The position numbers and the translations under genes are program-made. DNA of 64,000 bases, from contig CM059432.1 in assembly GCA_030390025.1 (NCBI GenBank), positions 46,378,001 through 46,442,000 of the forward strand, given 5' to 3'. The notes beneath the pieces are model-generated. The model saw nothing but the letters and a program-made list of their open reading frames with translations. It did not search any database and was not told the origin of the DNA. Positions 8,325-62,524 of the stretch are shown here, one piece after another. This DNA comes from Squalus acanthias. Its lineage: Eukaryota. Numbering within the stretch: position 1 is the stretch's first letter; each line of letters begins with the position of its first letter.

Positions 8325-9281
8325 ATGGGAGAGCAGGTGATGTGTTACTGCTGCAATATGTGGGAGCTGGTGGACACCATTGATGTTCATGGTGATCACA
8401 TTTGCAGTAAGTGTTGGCTGCTCGAGGAACTCCGGCTCCGTGTTGATGAGCTGGAGTCCGAGCTTCAAACACTGCGACACATCAGGGAGGGGGAGAGTTA
8501 CCTGGACTCTGTGTTCCAGGAGGTAGTCACACCAATTAGATTAACTAATTCAGATGTAGCCCGTGATCAGGGACAGGAGGGTGTGACTACGAGTGAGGCA
8601 GGTACGGGGATCCAGGAGGTAGTGTTGGAGGAGCCGCAGCCCTTGCTCTTGTCCAACAGGTTCGAGGCTCTTACTCCCTGTGAGGACGGGAGCAGGGACT
8701 GCAGGGAGGATGAGCAACCTGGCCACAGCACCGTGGTACGGGGAGCCATTCAAGTGGGGGGAGTAAAAAGAAATGTTGTAGTGGTAGGGGATAGTATCAT
8801 TAAGGGGATAGATAGGGTTCTTTGCAGCCGAGAGCAAGAGTCCCGAAGGCTGTGTTGCCTGCCCGGTGCCAGGGTTAAGGACATCTCCTCTGGGCTGGAG
8901 AGAAACTTGGAGTGGGAGGGGGAAGATCCAGTTGTCGTGGTCCATGTTGGTATCAATGACATAGATAGGACAAGGAATGAGGTTCTGCTGAGGGAGTATG
9001 AGCAGCTAGGGGCCAAATTAAAAAACAGAACCTCTAGGGTAGTAATCTCTGGATTACTACCTGAGCCACGAGCAAATTTGGCTAGGGTAAATAAAATCAG
9101 AGAGTTAAATGCGTGGCTCAAAGACTGGTGTGGGAGAAATGGGTTTTGCTTCCTGGGACACTGGCACCAGTACTGGGACAGGAGAGAGCTGTTCCGTTGG
9201 GATGGACTTCACTTGGCCAGTGCTGGGACTAGAGTCCTGGCGAATCGAATAACTAGGGCTGTAGAGAGGGCTTTAAACTAA
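8325..9281 (+). CDS. CR1 ORF1 protein (N-terminal Cys/His zinc finger, coiled coil, SGNH-type esterase domain), uninterrupted 318 aa
   Basis: CYCC..W...HICSKC, heptad ELRLRVDELESELQTL, VVVGDSII, HVGIND and WDGLHL motifs. Confidence 0.9.
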   Translation: MGEQVMCYCCNMWELVDTIDVHGDHICSKCWLLEELRLRVDELESELQTLRHIREGESYLDSVFQEVVTPIRLTNSDVARDQGQEGVTTSEAGTGIQEVVLEEPQPLLLSNRFEALTPCEDGSRDCREDEQPGHSTVVRGAIQVGGVKRNVVVVGDSIIKGIDRVLCSREQESRRLCCLPGARVKDISSGLERNLEWEGEDPVVVVHVGINDIDRTRNEVLLREYEQLGAKLKNRTSRVVISGLLPEPRANLARVNKIRELNAWLKDWCGRNGFCFLGHWHQYWDRRELFRWDGLHLASAGTRVLANRITRAVERALN

Positions 9282-9319
9282 TTAGTGGGGGGGAGGTTTC
9301 AAGAGAGCAAAAAATAAAA

Positions 9320-12270
9320 ATGTCAGCGGAGAAGGCAATAGAGCAAAGTAGCAGTGGGGTAATTAAAAACCAGAGCCTGTCAGGAAGGGACAGAATATAT
9401 AAAGATAAAGGTAAAGTAGTAAAGGGGGTAAAAGCAGGAATAAATTGTCACAAAACATATTTAAAAGTTCTTTATCTGAATGCACGCAGCATTCGTAACA
9501 AAATAGACGAGTTGACGGTACAAATAACTACGTATGGGTATGATCTTGTGGCCATTACAGAAACATGGCTGCAGGGTGACAACGACTGGGAATTAAATAT
9601 GCCAGGGTATTTAACAATCAGGAAGGACAGGCAGGAAGGAAGAGGAGGTGGGGTAGCTATGTTAATAAAGGAAGGAATCACTGTATTACAGAGAAATGAT
9701 ATTGGGTCAAAGGATCAGGATAATGAAACAGTTTGGGTGGAGATAAGGAATAATAAGGGGAAAAAAACACTAGTGGGAGTAGTATATAGGCCTCCTAATA
9801 GTTGCAACTCTGCTGGAAGAAGTATTAATCAGGAAATAGTTGGGGCATGTAATAAGGGAACAGCTATAATTATGGGGGATTTTAACTATCATATTAACTG
9901 GACAAATCAAATTGGGCAGGGCAGCCTTGAGGAAGAGTTTATTGAGTGTATTAGGGATGGATTTCTTGAGCAGTATGTAACTGATCCTACAAGGGGGCAA
10001 GCAACCTTGGACCTGGTCCTGCGTAATGAGTCAGGATTAATTAATAATGTCCTAGTTAAGGATCCCCTTGGAATGAGTGACCATAACATGGTTGAATTCC
10101 ATATCCAATTAGAGGGTGAGAAGGTTGGTTCTCAGACAAGCGTACTGAGCTTGAATAAAGGAGACTATGATGGTATGAGAGCAGAATTGATTAAAGTGGA
10201 CTGGGAAAATAGATTAAAGGGTAAGACGGTACATGAGCAGTGGTGTTCATTTAAGGAGTTATTTTACAACTTTCAAAAAATATATATTCCACTGAGGAAA
10301 AAAGGGTGTAAAAGAAATGACAGCCATCCGTGGCTAAGTAAAGAAATTAAGGATAGTATCCAACTAAAAACAAGGACATATAAGGTAGCCAAACTTAGTG
10401 GGAGGATAGAAGATTGGGAAGTCTTCAAAAGACAGCAAAAAGTAACTAAAGGATTGATTAAGAAAGGGAAGATAGATTATGAAAATAAATTAGCAAAAAA
10501 TATAAAAACAGATAGCAAGAGTTTCTATAGTTATATAAAAAGAAAAAGGGTGGCTAAGGCAAACGTAGGTCCCTTAGAGGATGAGACCGGGAAATTAATG
10601 GTGGGAAACATGGAGATGGCAAAAATGCTGAACAAATATTTTGTTTCAGTCTTTACGGTAGAGGACACTAAGAATATCCCAACACTGGACAAACAGGGGG
10701 CTCTGGGGGGGGAGGAGCTAAATACGATTAAAATCACTAAGGAATTGGTACTCAGTAAAATAATGGGACTCAAGGCGGATAAATCCCCTGGACCTGATGG
10801 CTTACATCCTAGGGTCTTGAGGGAAGTGGCAGTAGGGATTGTGGATGCTTTGGTAATAATTTTCCAAAATTCCCTGGACTCAGCAAAGGTCCCGGCAGAT
10901 TGGAAAACTGCTAATGTAACACCCTTATTTAAAAAGGGTAGTAGGCAGAAGGCTGGAAATTATAGACCAGTTAGTCTAACATCTGTGGTGGGTAAAATTT
11001 TGGAGTCTATTATTAAGGAGACAGTAACGGAACATTTAGATAAACATAATTTAATAGGACAAAGTCAGCATGGCTTTATGAAGGGGAAGTCATGTCTGAC
11101 AAATTTGCTTGAGTTCTTTGAGGACATAACGTACAGGGTGGATAAAGGGGAACCAATGGACGTAGTGTATTTAGACTTCCAGAAGGCATTCGACAAGGTG
11201 CCACATAAAAGATTATTGCTCAAGATAAAAAATCACTGGATTGGGGGGAATATTCTGGCATGGGTGGAGGATTGGTTATCTAACAGGAAGCAGAGAGTTG
11301 GGATAAATGGTTCATTCTCGGACTGGCAACCAGTAGCCAGTGGTGTTCCGCAGGGGTCGGTGCTGGGTCCCCAACTCTTTACAATCTATATTAACGATTG
11401 GAGGAGGGGACCGAGTGTAACATATCAAAGTTTGCAGATGATACAAAGATGGGAGGGAAAGTAGAAAGTGAGGAGGACATAAAAAACCTACAAGGGGATA
11501 TAGACAAGCTGGGTGAGTGGGCGGAGATTTGGCAGATGCAATACAATATTGGAAAATGTGAGGTTATGCACTTTGGCAGGAAAAATCAGAGAGCAAGTTA
11601 TTATCTTAATGGCGAGAAACTGGAAAGTACTGCAGTACAAAGGGATCTGGGGGTCCTAGTGCAAGAAAATCAAAAAGTTAGTATGCAGGTGCAGCAGATG
11701 ATCAAGAAGGCCAATGGAATGTTGGCTTTTATTGCTAGGGGGATAGATTATAAAAACAGGGAGGTATTGCTGCAGTTATATAAGGTATTGGTGAGACCGC
11801 ATCTGGAATACTGCATACAGTTTTGGTGTCCATACTTAAGAAAAGACATACTTGCTCTCGAGGCAGTACAAAGAAGGTTCACTCGGTTAATCCCCGGGAT
11901 GAGGGGGTGGACATATGAGGAGAGGTTGAGTAGATTGGGACTCTACTCATTGGAGTTCAGAAGAGTGAGAGGCGATCTTATTGAAACATATAAGATTGTG
12001 AAGGGGCTTGATCGGGTGGATGCGGTAAGGATGTTCCCAAGGATGGGTGAAACTAGAACTAGGGGGCATAATCTTAGAATAAGGGGCTGCTCTTTCAAAA
12101 CTGAGATGAGGAGAAACTTCTTCACTCAGAGGGTAGTAGGTCTGTGGAATTTGCTGCCCCAGGAAGCTGTGGAAGCTACATCATTAAATAAATTTAAAAC
12201 AGAAATAGACAGTTTCCTAGAAGTAAAGGGAATTAGGGGTTACGGGGAGCGGGCAGGAAATTGGACATGA
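9320..12270 (+). pseudogene. CR1 ORF2 (AP-like endonuclease + reverse transcriptase) with a single 1-nt deletion near 11398
   Basis: ORFs 9320-11464 and 11398-12270 overlap. Motifs YLNARS, ITETWL, MGDFN, SDH, NYRPVSL, GVPQGSVLGP, FADD. This copy has aacgaTTgg where the sister copy near 23320 has aacgaTTTgg. Confidence 0.93.
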
Positions 12271-12671
12271 GGCTGAGTTCGGATCGGTCGAGGCCCTGTG
12301 GGTGGCGTAGCGGGCCCAGGGGCTGAGTGGCCGGGTCCTGCTCCTACTTCTTGTGTTCTTTAGATTTGAGGTGAGGATCAGATCAGCCATGATCTTATTG
12401 AATGGCGGAGCAGGCTCGAAGGGCCGATTGGCCTACTCCTGCTCCTATTTCTTATGTTCTTATGTTCTTATAAACACCGGCATGGACCTGTTGGGCCGAT
12501 TGGCCTGTTTCTGTGCTGTAGATACTTTGTAATACTTGAAGCATAAGTTTTACAAATTCGGGTTGGCCATAGATATCTTCTCAGGTTCAGTAGTGTCAGT
12601 CACTCCCGTAAGCAGTTTTTTTTTAACCTTTTGTGAATACATTTTTGCTTTAAAAGCATTAAAAGTAACAC

Positions 12672-12899
12672 AATAGCAAAATACTGCGGATGCTGGAAAT
12701 CTGAAATAACAATAGAAAACACTGGAAAAACTCAGCAGGCCAGGCAGCATCCGTGGAGAGAGAAACAGAGTTAAAATCTATTCAATTTCCTGCTTTTTTC
12801 CAGTTCTGATGAAAGGTCTTCGACCTGAAACGTTAACTCTGTTTCTCTCTCCACGGATGCTGCCTGGCCTGCTGAGTTTTTCCAGCGTTTTCTGTTGTT
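12672..12899. mobile_element. Penelope-like element terminal fragment in inverted (hairpin) arrangement
   Basis: About 70-nt inverted arms (12705-12774 / 12833-12902). 14-bp direct repeat ATTAAAAGTAACAC at 12658-12671 and 12900-12913. Contains a hammerhead core. Confidence 0.8.
12802..12838 (+). ncRNA. Minimal type I hammerhead ribozyme motif
   Basis: AGTT-CTGATGA-A-AGGTC(TTC)GACCT-GAAAC-GTT/AACT: stem I AGTT:AACT, 5-bp stem II, palindromic AACGTT in place of stem III. Confidence 0.8.
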
Positions 12900-12959
12900 A
12901 TTAAAAGTAACACTTATTTTCAAATCCTTTCTGTGGAAAAATGGTCAAATAATTCTGAA

Positions 12960-31600: not shown

Positions 31601-32222
31601 CTAACACTTAGGACTTGATTTTAACTGTTCCTGCTGGGTGGGCAATGGGCCAGCTGACCGTTGTACAACCTGGTCATTTTTCCTATCCATTACATTCAGT
31701 TAATAGTTACATGGTAATGTAACTTAAGCTGCGGTTATATTCAGCACAACCTGCTTGTTTTAAAGCAAAAAAATCCTCAAATGTTTATGAAAGCCTAAGG
31801 ACAAATGCAAATGTAGAAGGTTCAAAACGTATTTCCCAGGGATGGTGGAGGGCTGTCTGGGGGCCTGCTTCTCCCAGAAATTTTAAATTTGTGACACTTT
31901 ATTTGGTACTTTTTCCAGTATTTTGAAAACTGCAATGAACACGGCGACGCATTTTCTTTTCACCTAAAAAGGGACATTTACTACATTTTATTGTAAATGA
32001 CACTCTAGTTGATTTAAAAAAAAATATATTGTAAAATTTCATTCAGCAGCAGCAAATAATTACTTGCAGAGAAAAAATATTTTTAAGAAAATAGCAAATA
32101 GGGGATTTAAATCCTGTTTTAGTGACCATGGGATCAGTCAGGCTGTAGAATTATGCAAAATAACAACAGAAAACGCTGGAAAAACTCAGCAGGCCAGGCA
32201 GCATCCGTGGAGAGAGAAAGAG

Positions 32223-32259
32223 AGTTAACGTTTCAGGTCGATGACCTTTCATCAGAACT
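32223..32259 (-). ncRNA. Minimal type I hammerhead ribozyme motif (downstream copy)
   Basis: Minus strand AGTT-CTGATGA-A-AGGTC(ATC)GACCT-GAAAC-GTT/AACT. Confidence 0.8.
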
Positions 32260-32614
32260 GTGAAGAGCCGGAAATCAAATAGATTTAAGGCCAGAGTAAA
32301 GCTGGGAAAAGGGGGAGGGGGATAAAAGAACAAAGGGGGAGATGAAGAGACATTAAGAGACATTAAGAGATATGCAAGGCAAACACGAGAAGGGAAACTG
32401 AAATCAATGAAGATGAACAAGGTTGAAGAGCCAAACGGAAATCCCGTCGAAGAGAAGAGCAGAACTTCTTCAAGGTAGGCATTCCTAGAAGAGAGGTGGC
32501 AGTGAACCAAACACTAATACGATAGCAAAATACTGCGGATGCTGGAAATCTGAAATAACAACAGAAAACGCTGGAAAAACTCAGGCCAGGCAGCATCCGT
32601 GGAGAGAGAAAGAG

Positions 32615-32651
32615 AGTTAACGTTTCAGGTCGATGACCTTTCATCAGAACT
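32615..32651 (-). ncRNA. Minimal type I hammerhead ribozyme motif (upstream copy)
   Basis: Identical to 32223-32259. Confidence 0.8.
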
Positions 32652-33191
32652 GTGAAGAGCCGGAAATCAAATAGATTTAAGGCCAGAGTAAAGCTGGGAA
32701 AAGGGGGAGGGGATAAAAGAACAAAGGGGGAGATAATTATGCACATTACTTCTGAATGTAACACCCCCTCCCCCTCCCCCCACATTTTTCCTGTGCATGT
32801 GCAAACCTGTGTTGCATTTCTAGGCAGATCCTTCAGGCATGTTCCCCTGGAAAATGTTGGTGTTAAACATTGTGAATTCTGGTTAATTTCAAACAATTTT
32901 ATAATTCACAATTGATAGATTTTTAATCTCAGAAAAAGGATTGTGACCATTTGGGTTTTCAACAGAACAACCAGACTATTATTTCTCCAAAAGCTACCGC
33001 AAATCACTCACATGACTGCCCCTACCCTGCCCCAGTTTCCAGAAGCACTCTATCGTCCTTGGACCCAACTTATAGAGATAGTTCAATTCCTCTCCAGCTT
33101 CTTCAGTTCAAGCTGGCACTCTCTTTCCTCCCCATCCAAAAACACTGCTCCTGGCTACTTCCCATTTAGTCCTCTCCACCACAAAAGCATT

Positions 33192-33622
33192 GGCCCAAAA
33201 TTTGCGATTGGAGGCTTCCAACGGACCTGTTAAAAAATCTAGGCATTTACCTGGTGGCCCGGGAGGTACGGAGGCTTGTGATCCTGGGCGCCTCCAGTGA
33301 CTCGCGGGCAGAGGCCCACATAGCCCAGGGATCACGTGGACCGGCCCAACCAATAAAAGAAGGGAATCCCCATTCATACTTATGGGAGTTGCGTACGTAC
33401 CAGGTGTAAGAATTTCACAGGCATTCAGCGGGCGGAAGTTGGGCAAATAGCGCAACTCTCCACCCGCAGAAGGCCTTCTCCCGGGGATGCGGAGGATCTT
33501 GACAGATCGCAAGTTCCGGGTTTTAGCGCATGTGCTTCGCATGCCTAAACCCGGAACTTGCACGGCCCCTACGGGTGCGTACACACCTCGTACGCACCCA
33601 TAGGGGTCGCAAAATATGGCCC
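33192..33622. mobile_element. Harbinger-type MITE
   Basis: TIR GGCCCAAAATTTGCGA / TCGCAAAATATGGCCC with flanks ATT/AAT. Internal 15-bp perfect inverted repeat spanning 33509-33561. Confidence 0.75.
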
Positions 33623-33774
33623 AATGCTTCTATTTCCTTTCATCCCCTCTCCATTCCACCCTTCCCTGTCCCCTACCCCCAGCCTCTTTCCCTTTTTCCT
33701 CCAATCTCCTCTACCCCATTCCCTCTCCCCTTTCCCGTTTCCTCTTCCATTTACTTTCCCCTCCACTTTATAGT

Positions 33775-35694: not shown

Positions 35695-36581
35695 GGGCCC
35701 AGAATTTGTGGTCCGGATGACGGCGAACTGGCAGCGTTCGCCGTCATTCCGTCTTTGAAACTGACCCCAACTTCGGGATTTGGCGCATGCGCAGGTCTGT
35801 CATTCACTGCTCTGCCACAAACTGCACCATGGGACCCCCCCCCCCCCCCCCCCCACTGCCCACCACCCCACACAGAACCGGCAATCAGTGAAATCTCTCA
35901 AATCAGGGAAAACTTCGACTCTTTCTCAGTAATTACGCTGTTAAATTCCCCACTAAAAGTTAGACCCAAAGGGATTAGGTGTAACTAGAGTTTTAACAGC
36001 GTATTGACTGCTAAACAAAGGTCACGGGCCAGAAAAACTCATTTTAATTTTGTGCACTGTCACATTTATCCATTTTAATAAAAATAAAATTTTTGAAAAA
36101 ACTTAAATTATTTTTTAAGTTTGTTCATCTTTATTTCAGGTTTACCTCTTTCACATGTGAAAGCTCCATCTTTGTTTTGCTCTCTCTAACATTTTTAAAA
36201 AGTTGACATTTTAGGAGCTTACCCACTTCCTGGTTCGCTGTCTGTGAGAATTCTGTGTTTTGATTGGTTGCTTAGAGAGGTTGTTGACGTCACAGCAGCT
36301 CGCACTAGGGGATCCCCACTAAACTCCGTTGATTTGAATTATCCTGTCAAATCTATGAATGAAAATTCCCTGCTACCATTGGCTCTCCATGGCCCACGTG
36401 ATCCCAGGGGACGCTTCGAACTAACTGCGCCCCTGGGATACGCAAGCACTGCGCGCCGGCAGCTGCAGGAGGCCCAGCACCCGAATTCCTCGTGGGCCCG
36501 AAGCACAACAGCAGGCGCGGTAGGTAAGTACGCGCGCGATGCTTGCACCCGCAGGAAGTCGGAGAGCCGAATTTCTGGCCC
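35695..36581. mobile_element. Harbinger-type MITE
   Basis: Ends GGGCCCAGAATTT / GAATTTCTGGCCC, CpG-rich subtermini. TSD not clean. Confidence 0.7.
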
Positions 36582-37496
36582 ATAGTAAAACATTCCGAGG
36601 CTCTTCATAGAGGCACAATCAAAAAAAATGGACACAGAGACAAAGAAGGAGAGATGGGGTGGCAGTGACCAAAAGCTTGGTCAAACAGGTGGATTTTATA
36701 GGAGAGGAGGTGGAGAGGTTGAGAGGCGTAGGAAGGGATTTCCAGAGCATGGGGCCCAGGTGGCTGAAGGTATGCCAGAACTATTTTCTTTTCCAGTACA
36801 TTAGCATTTCCAATATTTCCAGTGCCAGACATCCTCTTACTGGCCATGACTAAAACATGTCATTCCCAGTAATTGTCAGTTGTGAGTAGCAAATGTAAAT
36901 TCTGAAGGAACTGCCATTAGTGGTACTGCAGGCTATGGTTGCCGGCACAGACACGATGGGCCAAATGGCCTCCTTTTATGCCGTACATTTCTATGATTCT
37001 ATTAACTGAAGTGATTACAAGATAGTAATCTACAGCCTCTCTACTTCTCTCCTGCTTTAAGTCGGTCCTTAAAACCTACTTGTTTGACGAAGCTTTATGT
37101 GGCTCGGTGTCAAATTTTGTTTGATAACGCTCCTGTGAAGTGCCTCGGGACATTTTTTGCTATGTTAAAGATGCTACATAAATGCAAGTTGTTGTTATTA
37201 TACAGTTCACTTTACAAACCACAGGAGCAAAGCTCAAACAGTTTGTAACTGTCATTTACCCTCTGAAATTAGATTGCAGCCTTTAAATTACTTTTTGGTG
37301 TCAGTTTTCTGCTCATACTACACATAGTTATGTTGGAAGGTTTATTTGATTTTTTTTGTCAGTTATTGCCCTGATAGTGGAGATCGCTGTGAATGGCAGT
37401 AGTCTGTGCTCTTCATGTCCTTGATGCATAGAGATAGTTATGTAAGAGGATTAGCAATTTCGACGTCATTACTTCAGGTGTGATTATAGAGAGAGA

Positions 37497-42519: not shown

Positions 42520-45500
42520 GACACTGAAGGATCTGGACTATCAGCAAAACAAAAATAGAATCCATGTGGATAGAGATAAAAGATAATAAAGGATCAATCA
42601 CACTAATAGGGGTAGTCTACAGCCCACCTAATAGTGGAAGGGAGGTGGAGGAATAAATATGCAATCAAATTAGGGAAATGAGTAAAAAACATAGAATAAT
42701 AATCATGTGGGATTTTAACTACCCCAATATTAACTGGCCAGAAGGTAGGTAAAGGGGATAAGAACATGAACATAAGAAATAGGAGCAGGAATAGGCCACT
42801 TGGCCCCTCGAGCCTGCTCCGCCATTCAATAAGATCATGGCTGATCTTGGGCTCAAAACCACTTCCCTGCCTGCTCCCCATACCCTTTCACTCCCTTATC
42901 TTGCAAAAATGTGTCCAGGACTCCTTTCTAACTCAATATGTAAGAAGCCCAACAAGGGAGGATTCGCTATTGGATCTAGTAATGTGGAATGAACCAGAAC
43001 AGATAAGAGAAGTAAGCGTAGGCAACACCTAGGCAACAGTGACCATCATATACAGGAAACTCTTTATTAACCAGCACCGACGGGACCGGCGTGGTGTCGG
43101 TTTATCGAAAGTACCGGATAACGGAGAGTTATATCTACCGAGGCTATTTTTAACAAAGCAAAATAAATAAAGAAAGAAATGTGCAGTATACTTCCGACAG
43201 CACCAGGAGGCCGAGTAGTGGCACTTTTGAAAACTACCCCTACTGACTAAATCGGCTTTCGCGGACTCGGACTCGGACTCGGGATCGGCAACATTGCCGG
43301 TTATTTGAGAGGAGTTTTCGGAGTACTCGGCGTTCGCGGAGACTCGACTGCGACTCGGCAACATTGCCGGTTATTTGAGAGGAGTTTTCGGAGGATGATT
43401 TTTGCCGGTTAAGCGAGAATTCCGGATATTTGGGTGCCGGATAAACAAAAGTTTCCTGTAATATGCTTTAAGATAATAATTGAGAAGGACATAAGTATAA
43501 CGAAGACCAAGGTAATAGACTAGAGAAAAAACAAATTTGTGGGGCTGAGAATAGAATTTTGGAAAATAAAATGGACAACAATATTGGCAAACAATGATTT
43601 AGAACAGCAGTGGGAAACAGTATTCAACAGAGTCCGGGAAAAAAATATTCCACTAAAAAACAAGAACAAGCTAAACACTAATGAGACACCATGGATGAAT
43701 AAAGACATCAGAGAAAAATTGAGGATAAGGAAAGAGGCATACACTAAGTACATGCACAGCAGGGGAGAACATGACGAGAGAATATGAAGAAATTAGGAGG
43801 AAAGTAAAAAAAAAAACAATTAGAAAGGCAAAAAGGAACTATGAAATTAAATTATCAAGGAACATAAAACAAAATAGTGAAATACTTTACAGGCACATAA
43901 ATAAAAAAATGGTAAGTCAGGATGGGAATAGGGCCACTAAGGGATGGATGGGATAATATCACAGGTAGCAATAGAGAGATGGCAGAAATATTAAATCATT
44001 ACTTTACTTCAGTATTTACCAGGGAGACAGAACAGGTAGACATGACATCGGTAGATAAGATTAGAAATGAGATAATTGCATTTAAAATAAAAAGATGAGA
44101 AATATTAAATAAACTAATCAAACTCAAAGAGGATAAAACTCCTGGATGGATTATATCCACGCATTTTAAAAGAATATAGGGAAGAGATAGCAGAGGCATT
44201 AGTACACATATTTAGTAATTTGTTAGAACAAGATGTACTGCTAGAGGACTGGCGGATAGCTAACATAATACTTATATTTAAGAAGGGAGATAGAACATGT
44301 CCAGGGAACTATAGACCAGTCAATTTAACATTGGTGGTAGGAAAAATAATGGAATCCCTACTAAAGGTGAAAATAGAAGAACATCTAGCAACCAAAAATA
44401 TAATAATGAACAGTCAGCATGGATTTCAAAAGGGAAAGTCTTGCTTGGCCAACCTCATTGAATTTTTTGAAGAGATAACAGAGAGAGTAGACAAGGGTAA
44501 TGTAGTAGATGTAATTTATCTAGATTTTCAAAAGACCTTCGATAAGGTACCACATAATAGACTAATGAATAAGATCAGAGCATACAGAGTCAGGGGACAA
44601 GTAGCAAAATGGATAACTAGCTGGCTTCAAGACAGAAAGCAGAGAGTAAGGGTAAAGGACAGCTATTCAGAGTGGCAGACGGTGGGAAGTGGTGTTCCAC
44701 AAGGATCAGTGCTGGGACCACTGTTGTTCATAATTTATATTAACTATTTAGACTTTGGAATCAAAAACACAATTTCTGAATTTGCAGACAACACCAAATT
44801 GGGAGGGATAGTCAATACTGAGGAGGACTGCAATAAATTTCAAGAAGACATTAATAAATTTACAGAATGGGCATATAATTGGCAAATGAAATTCAACACA
44901 GATAAATGTGAGCTATTACATTTTGTTAAGAAAAATAGGGAGGTCACATATTACTTGGAAAATACGAATCTAAGTGGGGTAGAAGAGCAAAGGGATCTGG
45001 GAGTACAAATACACAAATCACTGAAAGTAGCAACACAGGTTAACAAGGCCATAAAAAAAGCAGACCAAGCACTAGGGTTTATTTCTAGAGGGATTGAATT
45101 GATAGGAAGAGAAGTTATGCTAAACTTGTACCAAACCTTGGTTAGACCACACTTGGAGTACTGCGTACAATTCTGGTCACCATGTAATAAAAATGATATA
45201 GAGGCACTGGAGAGGGTGCAAAAAAGATTTACAAGGATGATACCAGAAATGCGAGAGTATCAAGACTATACCTATCAGGAAAGGATGAACAGGCTGGGTC
45301 TCGTTGAAAAGAGAAGGCTGAGGAGTGACCTAATAGAGGTCTTTAAAATTATGAAAGGTTTTGATAGAGTAGATACAGAGAGAATGTTTCCACTTGTGGG
45401 GAAGAGTAAAACTAGAGGCCATCAATATAAGATAGTCACCAAGAAATCAAATAGGGAATTCAGAAGCAACTTCTTTACCCAGAGAGTGGTGAGACTGTGG

Positions 45501-45716
45501 AACTCGCTACCACAGGGAGTGGTTGAAGTGAATAATATAGATGCATTTAAGGGGAGGCTAGATAAGCATATGAGGGAGAAGGGAATAGAGGGTTATGCTG
45601 ATAGAGTTAGATGAGGAAAGACTGGAGGAGGCTCGAGTGGAGCATAAATGCCAGCGTGGACTGGTTGGGCCGAATGGCCTGTTTCTGTGTTGTATATCCT
45701 ATGCAATCCTATGTAA
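42520..45716 (+). mobile_element. CR1 ORF2 region, decayed 5' half and open 464-aa RT/C-terminus; hosts a minus CR1 tail (about 42760-42905) and a TA-targeting MITE
   Basis: GVVYSPP, DFN and SDH remnants, ORF 44220-45614, tail atcctatgcaatcctatgtaa. Confidence 0.92.
43053..43458. mobile_element. Tc1/mariner-pogo (Tigger-like) MITE
   Basis: About 26-bp imperfect TIR CAGGAAACTCTTTATTAACCAGCACC / GGTGCCGGATAAACAAAAGTTTCCTG with TA TSD. Confidence 0.85.
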
Positions 45717-47427: not shown

Positions 47428-47632
47428 ATGCTGGAAATACTCAGCACGTTAGGCATCCATGGAGAGAACAGACAAGACGTTTAGAGTATCAACCCTTACT
47501 CAGAATTCAAGAGGTTGGGTCCATAGCTGAAGCATCTTGTCTGTTTTCTCCATGGATGCTGCCTGACCTGCTGAGTGTTTCCAACATTTTCTGTTTTTGT
47601 TTCAGATCTCCAGCATCTATAACATTTTGTTC
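47428..47632. repeat. Degenerate Penelope-like inverted terminal fragment
   Basis: Inverted arms gcatccatggagagaacagacaaga / tcttgtctgttttctccatggatgc. Same body as 12672-12899. Hammerhead core decayed. Confidence 0.65.
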
Positions 47633-47783: not shown

Positions 47784-47932
47784 ATATGGTTACAGAAGTA
47801 CGGCTATCTTCAAGCTAGTGAACCCAGAATGTCAGTATTGCGGTCTTCACAGTCCATGCACTCAGCTGTAGCTGCTATGCAGCAATTCTATGGAATTAAA
47901 GTTACGGGGACTTTGGATGAAAATACAATAGA
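47784..47932 (+). CDS. MMP16: Membrane-type matrix metalloproteinase (MT3-MMP), internal coding exon, probably exon 2 (prodomain)
   Basis: Polypyrimidine tract + CAG acceptor (47781-47783) and GTAAG donor at 47933. The 149 nt translate to IWLQKYGYLQASEPRMSVLRSSQSMHSAVAAMQQFYGIKVTGTLDENTI(D). WLQKYGYL..PRMSVLRS and AAMQQFYGI fit MMP16 better than MMP14/15/24 as I recall them. Confidence 0.92.
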
Positions 47933-54527: not shown

Positions 54528-54685
54528 CATCTGTGGCGAGAGAAACAGAGTTAACATTTCAGGTCGATGACCTTTTCGTCAGAAACGTTAACTCTGTTTC
54601 TCTCGCCACAGATGTTGCCTGACCTGCTGAGTATTTCCAGCATTTTCTGTTTTTATTTCAGATTTTCAACGCCCGCAGTATATTG
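54528..54685. mobile_element. Penelope-like inverted terminal fragment with hammerhead core in the loop
   Basis: Perfect 28-bp arms (54528-54555 / 54587-54614). Minus strand CTGACGA-AA-AGGTC(ATC)GACCT-GAAA-TGTT-AACT. Confidence 0.75.
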
Positions 54686-61083: not shown

Positions 61084-61206
61084 TTGGATGAAGAAGCCTC
61101 GCTGTGGTGTACCTGACCAGTTTGGCAGCAACGTTAGACTTAATGTTAGAAGAAAGCGGTACGCATTAACTGGGCAGAAGTGGCATCATAAACATATCAC
61201 CTACAG
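61084..61206 (+). CDS. MMP16: MT3-MMP internal coding exon, probably exon 3 (cysteine switch, furin site, start of catalytic domain)
   Basis: ttttatctttcaCAG acceptor and GT donor at 61207. The 123 nt are phase-compatible with the previous exon (GA|T = Asp) and translate to [40 protein letters not shown](S). Confidence 0.93.
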
Positions 61207-62524
61207 GTACCTGTACTCACACATCATCCAATAAGCAGCTTTGCTTAGTATTCATCGGGACATGAACTGTAAAGATAAAAAGAAAAAAGTCTTAGTTCTG
61301 TAAATCTGAAATGAGAACAGAAAATGCTGGAAATGCACAACCTGTTAGCATCTGAAGAGAAAGAACTCAGACAAGGGTCCCACTTGAAATGCTGCTCTAT
61401 CTTTCACTTTTAGGCACTGAGCTTCGGCATGTTCCTTTTTAATTTCAGTGATCTGTAAAGTATTACTTGCTAGGAATCTAGCAGCAACCTGTTTGTCACT
61501 GACAAGTAAAAATTGATTTTCTGTAGGGCATGCGTAAAGCTGAATGTATGCCAGCAAGCTTTATTACATATTTACTATTTTAGGAGCGAAATAACACGGT
61601 CAATTGTCGGGTGAAAGTAAATATGTTATTGTTGCCCTGTTTTGCTGCCGGCACTTACATTCAGCTGTTTGAGACTGAAATTGTTTGAAAGTAATTTTGA
61701 CAAGAAGTCATAATGATGACTAGTCCCCCAAGACTCGAAGCTGTGGTAAAGTGCAAACATTTTCGCTAGAAGGGTAATTTTCTCACTTTGCCTTCCTGGC
61801 AGGAAGCCTAACCTGCTGTTAGTGCACATCTGAAATTTGGATGTGCAGTTTTGCGTAACTTAATTTGAAATGGAACAGATACTCGATGAACTGAGATACT
61901 CAACATTCAATAGCTCTGCTTTAGAATAATGTTGTACATCGAGTGTCAGTCCAACCTGGCTAGTAAACAGCCAACTTTTTTGACAGGTTAGATACAATCC
62001 ACTTGTATTCCTAGATACCAGAGTAAAACAGTCTGCCTGTTTCAATAACTTATTGTAAAAAGGAAAATAAAAGTTTATAAAACATCAGATGCACATTTTA
62101 TGGATTGTGAATAAGCTATAACCATTCCAGGTACACCTTTTTGACACATACCCAACACAGCTCAAGACATTTACAGCATCTGTTAAACACAAAAGCAGAT
62201 TAGTGAGAAATCACAAGTGGATTAAGATTGTGCTGTGCAATAGTAGTAACAAACATGTTAGCATGTTCTACGAAATTCCTCTATCTTCTACTTTAACAAA
62301 GATAGTAATATATAAATGGGTTACAATAGAAGAAAAACAACTTCATAAACTTTAATAAATTTACTACTAATATCACAGTGTAATTCCAAACTAAAGGATT
62401 CACCACGGTTACTGTTGCAGCTGAAGAGGTGAAAGTTAGATAGTGCTGGTTGCTTTCTCTGATGCTGGCTGGCATTTATTTTAAAGTTAACTCCGTTTGA
62501 ATACCTGATAATGAAAAATGAGTA

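Follow-up and report, generated by a model that had tools for sequence, protein, structure and literature searches.

In the 64-kb window, by which we mean the whole stretch of DNA that was analysed, a 577-nt unit at 32158-32734 carries two identical minimal type-I hammerheads on the minus strand, with cores at 32230-32255 and 32622-32647. Downstream, on the plus strand, lie two MMP-like exons (47784-47932 and 61084-61206), in which a propeptide, the cysteine switch PRCGVPD, and an RRKR site can be recognized. Their matches in the PDB are weak (five MMP chains, E 0.48-0.78), and we take them to be exons of a membrane-type MMP. Exon 1 of this gene was not found in the 64-kb window. The region 36200-36600 was considered as the MMP promoter and rejected, no signal-peptide exon having been found there. 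The original prediction had placed the unit antisense in an MMP intron; the two exons on the plus strand agree with the antisense placement, but with exon 1 not found the unit likely lies, as judged from the sequence, either in intron 1 of the MMP-like gene or in the DNA upstream of it. Because the element is antisense to this gene, the host pre-mRNA would not contain the hammerhead strand, and an RNA with the hammerheads would therefore need an internal promoter, as is known for Drosophila Penelope (PMC2377424), or some other read-through.

Several other repeats are present in the window. A MITE-like stretch of 445 nt at 33185-33629 is enclosed by 23-nt inverted repeats (87%) and contains internal hairpins; blastn detected no second copy of it in the window. 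Long LINE-like reverse transcriptase frames, presumably of the CR1/L2 type, run on the plus strand at 9257-12270 (735 aa) and 44118-45614 (498 aa). There are also four more pieces of the Penelope-like repeat. One of them, at 12658-12913, is an inverted pair in which an antisense tail-bearing copy (12672-12774) faces a sense copy (12775-12902) head to head; the pair is enclosed by a separate duplication of 11-14 bp and shares its 3' end with the 577-nt unit, and the sense copy holds a third hammerhead, with the loop UUC where the two in the unit have AUC. The remaining three, at 54528-54685, 47430-47617, and 61298-61365, are older, decayed pieces, the first two of them again inverted pairs. Matches to miRNA-like families in Rfam were discarded as false, being inverted copies of the Penelope-like family, for example at 54532-54610.

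Organization of the 577-nt unit

Hammerhead A extends over 32615-32651, with a predicted cut between 32619 and 32618, and hammerhead B, identical to it, over 32223-32259, with a predicted cut between 32227 and 32226, both on the minus strand. The predicted cut sites, after 32619 and 32227, are 392 nt apart and would delimit a hypothetical 392-nt RNA (32227-32618, minus strand, 44% GC). Each motif reads AGUU, CUGAUGA, one extra A, stem II, GAAA, CGU, U, the cut, and AACU; stem II has 5 bp (AGGUC/GACCU) and the loop AUC, and stem I has 4 bp (AGUU:AACU). The min-HHR core CUGANGA ... GAAA ... UH is present in both, as are the hallmarks of this class, namely a palindromic AACGUU without loop 3, the extra A between positions 9 and 10.1, and a helix I of 4 bp. 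The pair 10.1-11.1 is A-U in hammerheads A and B and in the copy at 12803, and G10.1-C11.1, a highly conserved pair that is described as usual but not as invariant, is thus replaced by a paired variant. At up to three mismatches the window contains three occurrences of the 35-nt motif, the third at 12803-12837 on the plus strand, and none of 100 shuffled sequences equalled that. The pair of identical minimal hammerheads 392 nt apart, as first described, is confirmed. The hammerhead profile comparison that had been suggested as a check gave nothing, Rfam returning no hammerhead match for the whole window at E up to 1 or for a 621-nt piece at E up to 10.

The direct repeats in which the hammerheads sit, originally estimated at about 185 nt, measure 182 and 186 nt. 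Repeat A, the 5' pseudo-LTR copy (32553-32734, minus strand), spans -90 to +92 relative to the AUG of the core, and repeat B, the 3' pseudo-LTR copy (32158-32343, minus strand), ends at +95, a 3' end of the commonest type. They differ by no substitutions and by two gaps, one of 3 nt and one of 1 nt, both in the 5' copy. Since the variants at 32220 and 32295 are identical in both repeats, these would derive from one source; the G at 32220, considered as a private variant, was rejected as such because about 28% of the depth in run X3 carries it. The TSD is a perfect 9-bp duplication, as had been claimed: AATTATGCA stands on the plus strand at 32735-32743, on the 5' side of the element, and at 32149-32157, on its 3' side, and it has no other plus-strand copy in the 64-kb window. 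As a chance control, none of 20,000 random positions had a 9-mer duplicate at this spacing.

Between the repeats, still on the minus strand, repeat A is followed by a 29-nt 'tail' (32524-32552) that lies between two recurrent element ends, seen as loose-end hot spots in three DNA-type runs, and that forms the 3' side of a predicted stem-loop (32534-32599) coming after the hammerhead. The extension past the tail (32381-32523) is the start of the element ORF, MPTLKK...SLLVF from 32482, recognized by homology and by its multi-copy depth; the 5' copy runs for a further 172 nt in place of the 29-nt tail. The segment 32344-32380, identified from contig depth and TRF, is upstream 3' UTR and occurs only before repeat B. 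It holds a 10-nt duplication, GAGACATTAA standing twice at 32347-32366, which TRF reports as 2.6 copies of a 10-mer (32345-32370). A predicted frame of 93 codons (32363-32644, minus strand) begins at the AUG of CUGAUGA within core A, 26 nt before the predicted cut site, crosses the tail and the ORF start, and stops five codons past the junction. Relative to the family RNA, the unit reads from -90 to +265 and then from -128 to +95, with an ORF-side stretch of 355 nt (+265 to -90) and a terminal-repeat stretch of 223 nt in the 3' copy (+95 to -128).

Homologues and abundance of the family

The ORF start in the spacer is identical in 29 of 35 residues to XP_067869940.1 from Heterodontus francisci, which bears out the proposal that the spacer contains the start of the element ORF and marks the family as shark-type. 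A HMMER search with the ORF start gave three matches, of which P0001 (XP_067869940.1) is a real homologue and P0003 represents the repeat itself in translation; P0002, a bacterial-type repeat protein, was dropped as a chance match. The homologue, the sole one found, is a 205-aa chimeric gene model without a Pfam match, in which about 80 residues of the element ORF start stand between unrelated sequence and a zinc-finger-like end, a splice structure that might reflect exonisation or an annotation artefact. Further protein searches, aimed at the ORF start or at a relative of full length, gave no match among 87, 6, and 23 candidates, with none usable in the ESM Atlas; the exact 93-codon ORF sequence is absent from the protein collection, and an RT or GIY-YIG domain of the family was not found in the protein searches.

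The assignment to the Penelope-like elements (PLEs), as far as it can be read from the letters, rests on non-coding anatomy. The PLE (EN+) traits present are partial tandems of pseudo-LTRs, direct or inverted, 5' truncation, a tail, a TSD, and an ORF that begins in or just after the hammerhead-bearing repeat. Together with the core, the palindromic AACGUU, and the recurrent ends, this anatomy upholds the proposed Penelope-like origin with minimal hammerheads of the dimer type.

Contigs from 4 of the 24 runs listed were compared with positions 31860-32560; two of the runs were from samples of organism A, a third was from organism B, and the fourth was a possible RNA run of organism A. Runs X3, X5, and X7 are of the DNA type, and X13 is guessed to be RNA. 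Over the hammerhead core the depth was 5.1-10.0 million, against 7-13 in the unique flank. With depth divided by 31 for contig overlap, the family comprises at least about 13,000-28,000 copies, a rough figure, as depth is not a copy number. Recurrent loose ends were observed at 32158 (equivalent to 32553; +95), in 171, 119, and 266 contigs of X3, X5, and X7, and at 32524 (+124 in an ungapped copy), in 686, 451, and 726 contigs of the same runs. At 32258-32260, just 5' of the hammerhead, hundreds of contigs depart with a shared majority continuation; these ends represent a second and larger subfamily, whose 3' UTR is a different one, plus a common truncation point. Organism B is nearly without 32268-32339, yet its depth over 32340-32387 roughly equals that over the ORF start, a pattern that reflects either a 3' UTR that has diverged or a family that bears the junction.

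In organism B, a contig of 1,251 nt tracks the flank as far as 32157, where the TSD ends, and then departs, as a contig from an empty site would. Because it looks like an empty site, the insertion would be younger than the split between organisms A and B. In X5, which represents another individual and was 55% read, the flank contig ends at 32136, and X13 has no cover across most of the unique flank. Scans with the family pattern gave no loci in metagenome contigs, viral contigs, or prokaryote genomes. No paper on this shark PLE family was found in the literature searched, and preprint supplements may list chondrichthyan repeats.

The junction between ORF start and 3' UTR

The true junction lies at 32380/32381 on the minus strand, where the ORF start (+264/+265) is joined to the 3' UTR (-128) with at least one shared G. 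The break is placed here because the H. francisci homologue reads on past this point, as LLVF-DEVSTK, with Asp as the next residue. The contigs agree with this position: among the pieces listed, three stop at 32380 and go on with unlike sequence, and three further ones begin at 32381-32383. None of the 32 contig pieces listed, out of about 106,000, spans 32380, but contigs in such repeats are short, and the missing bridges therefore carry little weight. A microduplication had originally been described at the junction. The 10-nt duplication is real, but it lies inside family sequence, since 32340-32387 is covered at depths of 149,000-1,571,000 in the DNA-type runs. TATGCA (at 32371) and ACATTA, both in 32344-32380, were tried as copies of the target site and ruled out, as the segment is high-copy in both organisms.

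At 32392, next to the junction, depth in the DNA runs of organism A falls to 5.3% and 2.5% of the value in the neighbouring UTR bin and to 23% and 5% of the ORF-start median. The residual depth is still 54-2,600 times that of the flank, and a small subfamily would therefore fit underneath. Organism B has a dip of just two-fold (46% and 57%, the former relative to the UTR bin), and its UTR segment stands at about the depth of the ORF start. With the dip, and with no bridging contig among the 32 pieces listed, the propagating non-autonomous element that had been proposed is not supported.

Other joints were also found. Among the 15 listed of 200, seven connect a tail directly to a truncated repeat, with differing breakpoint pairs (32247-32262 to 32518-32533) and a depth of at most 50 each; short tandem hammerhead pairs thus appear to keep arising, each with its own private junction. 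A contig of run X13 joins 32320 to 32379 at a depth of 64, with a short side of 23 letters, and connects the +265 point of the ORF to the 3' UTR. It shares its ORF-side breakpoint with the 577-nt unit, and its UTR breakpoint lies about 51 nt further 3'. Joints of this type are absent from those listed for the three DNA-type runs (15 of 200), and the X13 joint indicates either a recurrent restart site or a small deleted subfamily. At +265 the sequence reads GUGUUUG, which resembles GUUAUUU, the start at +95, and GUAUUUUG, that at +124.

Predicted folding and retrozyme traits

The original prediction held that the two copies could serve as each other's partners in one transcript. A double hammerhead is indeed nested and topologically feasible without pseudoknots, but in a nearest-neighbour model, run without a positive control and with core tertiary contacts omitted, it would cost about 19 kcal/mol (ddG), a single active site 11-12 kcal/mol, and the inter-copy stem III, with stems I and III of 4 bp each, has a probability of 0.0003-0.001. 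The ribozyme is probably weak, dimer-dependent, and protein-assisted, and we infer that its activity is low.

The unit shares with retrozymes its size (392 nt, within about 150-450 nt), its GC content (44%, below 50%), and its TSD (9 bp, above 4 bp). Where a retrozyme comprises two or more units in succession, each of them with its hammerhead complete, there are 1.47 units here, and TRF at 2 7 7 80 10 50 1000, the setting used to define vertebrate retrozymes, did not call them and reported just the 10-mer. The canonical type-I ribozyme of the 2020 definition has helix III and loop-loop contacts; in the unit there is no helix III loop and stem I has 4 bp. Retrozyme circles are described as highly self-paired, and the 392-nt circle is predicted to fold no better than shuffled sequences (-62.3 versus -60.2 +/- 5.0 kcal/mol in 60 shuffles, z -0.41, 44% paired; calculated with no retrozyme control). 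Because there is no array, no canonical ribozyme, and no such fold, we do not file the unit as a retrozyme, and its proposed role as a retrozyme-like source of circular RNA is not borne out by the copy number, the TRF result, the z value, or the disfavoured active fold.

Origin of the unit

We consider, with a probability of roughly 0.7, that the unit is a single young insertion of a high-copy Penelope-like element in the form of a short partial tandem, and not a retrozyme. An ordinary partial-tandem insertion had been named in the original prediction as what the unit would otherwise be, and it fits best among the readings. The endonuclease of the element would have cut an AT-rich site with a 9-nt stagger, and the reverse transcriptase would have begun at its usual internal site, +95 from the AUG of the hammerhead core, and proceeded through 223 nt of the terminal repeat as far as -128. 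From there it may have restarted at, or jumped to, +265, within the ORF start, and copied a further 355 nt, ending at -90, before the product was joined to the target. Internal deletion of a full pLTR-ORF-pLTR copy would give the same sequence. Either way, the two hammerheads 392 nt apart would be a by-product, and what remains would be a dead partial tandem. We infer this order of events, and likewise that the junction is unique to the locus.

An unlikely alternative, though one that the depth data leave room for, is that the unit belongs to a small non-autonomous, internally deleted PLE subfamily, whose linear RNA is copied by the protein of the autonomous element in the manner of MITEs, with no circle involved. 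The unit retains both repeats and 265 nt of the ORF start, and in the PAc element only the first 172 nt of the ORF are needed; mobilisation in trans and microhomology deletions are known for PLE derivatives (PMC3846280). The residual depth next to the junction would accommodate tens to hundreds of copies, the dip in organism B is just two-fold, and the X13 contig, which breaks at the same point of the ORF, could represent a member with a larger deletion. Against such a subfamily, at most 2.5-5% of the organism A copies with 32344-32380 can enter the ORF start, long contigs halt at 32380 and continue unlike the unit, and the other tandem joints are many and shallow (15 listed of 200). It is more doubtful that +265 is a third preferred restart site of the reverse transcriptase and that repeated dimers of 340-390 nt, which keep both hammerheads and the protein-binding ORF start, include at least one propagating circle-forming family with a 93-residue frame across the ligation site.

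A retrozyme in the strict sense, in which a dimer is cut twice, a 392-nt circle forms, and reverse transcription proceeds for more than one round (1.47 rounds from +95), appears improbable. The geometry would suit it (392 nt, 44% GC, a 9-bp TSD, a feasible nested double hammerhead), the repeats differ by no substitutions, as expected from one template, chondrichthyan tandem HHR repeats averaging 363 bp have been reported, and a circular route has been proposed for PLEs (PMC4209133). The hammerhead, however, is minimal and not canonical, with A-U replacing the usual G10.1-C11.1; no array is present, the predicted circle is unstructured, the active fold is disfavoured in the model, and two gaps set the repeats apart. 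In addition, for PAc no reads were observed to end at the cut site in vivo (PMC11167929), and in the Xenopus dimers covered by a 2026 preprint one of nine cleaved and eight did not (bioRxiv 2026.07.22.740005). The chances are slimmer still that two separate events or a later rearrangement produced the unit, either by insertion of a second copy into a solo truncated copy or by late loss of the middle. PLEs favour insertion into or beside existing copies (PMC6765202), and a post-insertion deletion would yield an identical sequence, but one TSD surrounds the whole unit and neither half has a second duplication, the absence of substitutions between the repeats implies that little time has elapsed, and the 6-mer TATGCA at 32371 is family sequence and not a target copy.

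As a single partial-tandem insertion, the unit matters little, being another truncated copy where there are tens of thousands, with an architecture described between 2013 and 2024. It does extend to a shark family the layout of PAc, in which the AUG stands in the catalytic core, 26 nt before the cut, with two internal starts. Should the junction turn out to be shared by a family, or +265 to be a recurrent restart site, the route that leads from PLE to retrozyme would become concrete, and a natural dimer of small size would be available with which to probe protein-assisted cleavage. Such a route has been proposed in a 2026 preprint, which argues from phylogeny and gives no mechanism (bioRxiv 2026.07.22.740005).

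Comparison with known systems

The closest parallels are with PAc, a Poseidon-type element of Anolis carolinensis, whose ORF begins at the hammerhead, with the cut 26 nt past the start codon and two internal RT start sites that define the tail (PMC11167929). According to that report, cleavage requires protein, the hammerhead is dispensable for insertion, and only the first 172 nt of the ORF are needed on the template. The shark unit likewise has its hammerhead in a pseudo-LTR with the AUG in the core, an identical distance of 26 nt from AUG to cut, two internal RT starts near a stem-loop that defines the tail, and partial tandems (PMC11167929). Its target is also AT-rich, TGCATAATT here, and the second copy in the window has ATT at the junction. 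It differs in being a 577-nt remnant with starts at +95 and +124 instead of 111-118, and in a 5' copy that extends for 172 nt in place of a 29-nt tail (PMC11167929); RT and GIY-YIG domains of its family did not turn up in the protein searches.

With the metazoan PLE min-HHRs the shark motifs share type I, the missing loop 3, the palindromic 15.2-16.2, the extra nucleotide between 9 and 10.1, a 4-bp helix I, and thousands of mostly truncated copies per genome (PMC4209133). They differ in the A-U pair at 10.1-11.1, where G-C is usual, and in a helix II of 5 bp. The same source describes low activity of these min-HHRs even as dimers, dimers and trimers cleaving poorly, and its pairs are either close (100-700 bp) and on opposite strands or in tandem about 3 kb apart, whereas the shark pair is both close and direct.

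Metazoan non-LTR retrozymes resemble the unit in monomer size, a GC content below 50%, a TSD above 4 bp, a tandem type-I pair, and an origin from PLE pLTRs (PMC7229834; bioRxiv 10.64898/2026.07.22.740005). Unlike them, the unit forms no array, its ribozyme is minimal, its predicted circle is not highly self-paired, and its spacer is the ORF start of an autonomous element; the 2026 preprint also accepts minimal hammerheads in retrozymes (bioRxiv 2026.07.22.740005).

Finally, pseudo-LTR partial tandems, 5' truncation, a tail of 30-40 nt, and a TSD are given as hallmarks of PLEs (EN+) (PMC8557442, PMC3846280). The Penelope derivatives of Adineta vaga have direct or inverted pLTRs, a 31-bp tail, TSDs of 8-10 bp, pLTRs that contain the first ORF codons, and microhomology deletions, in all of which they resemble the shark unit (PMC3846280). 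The rotifer families are low-copy, whereas the shark family is very high-copy.
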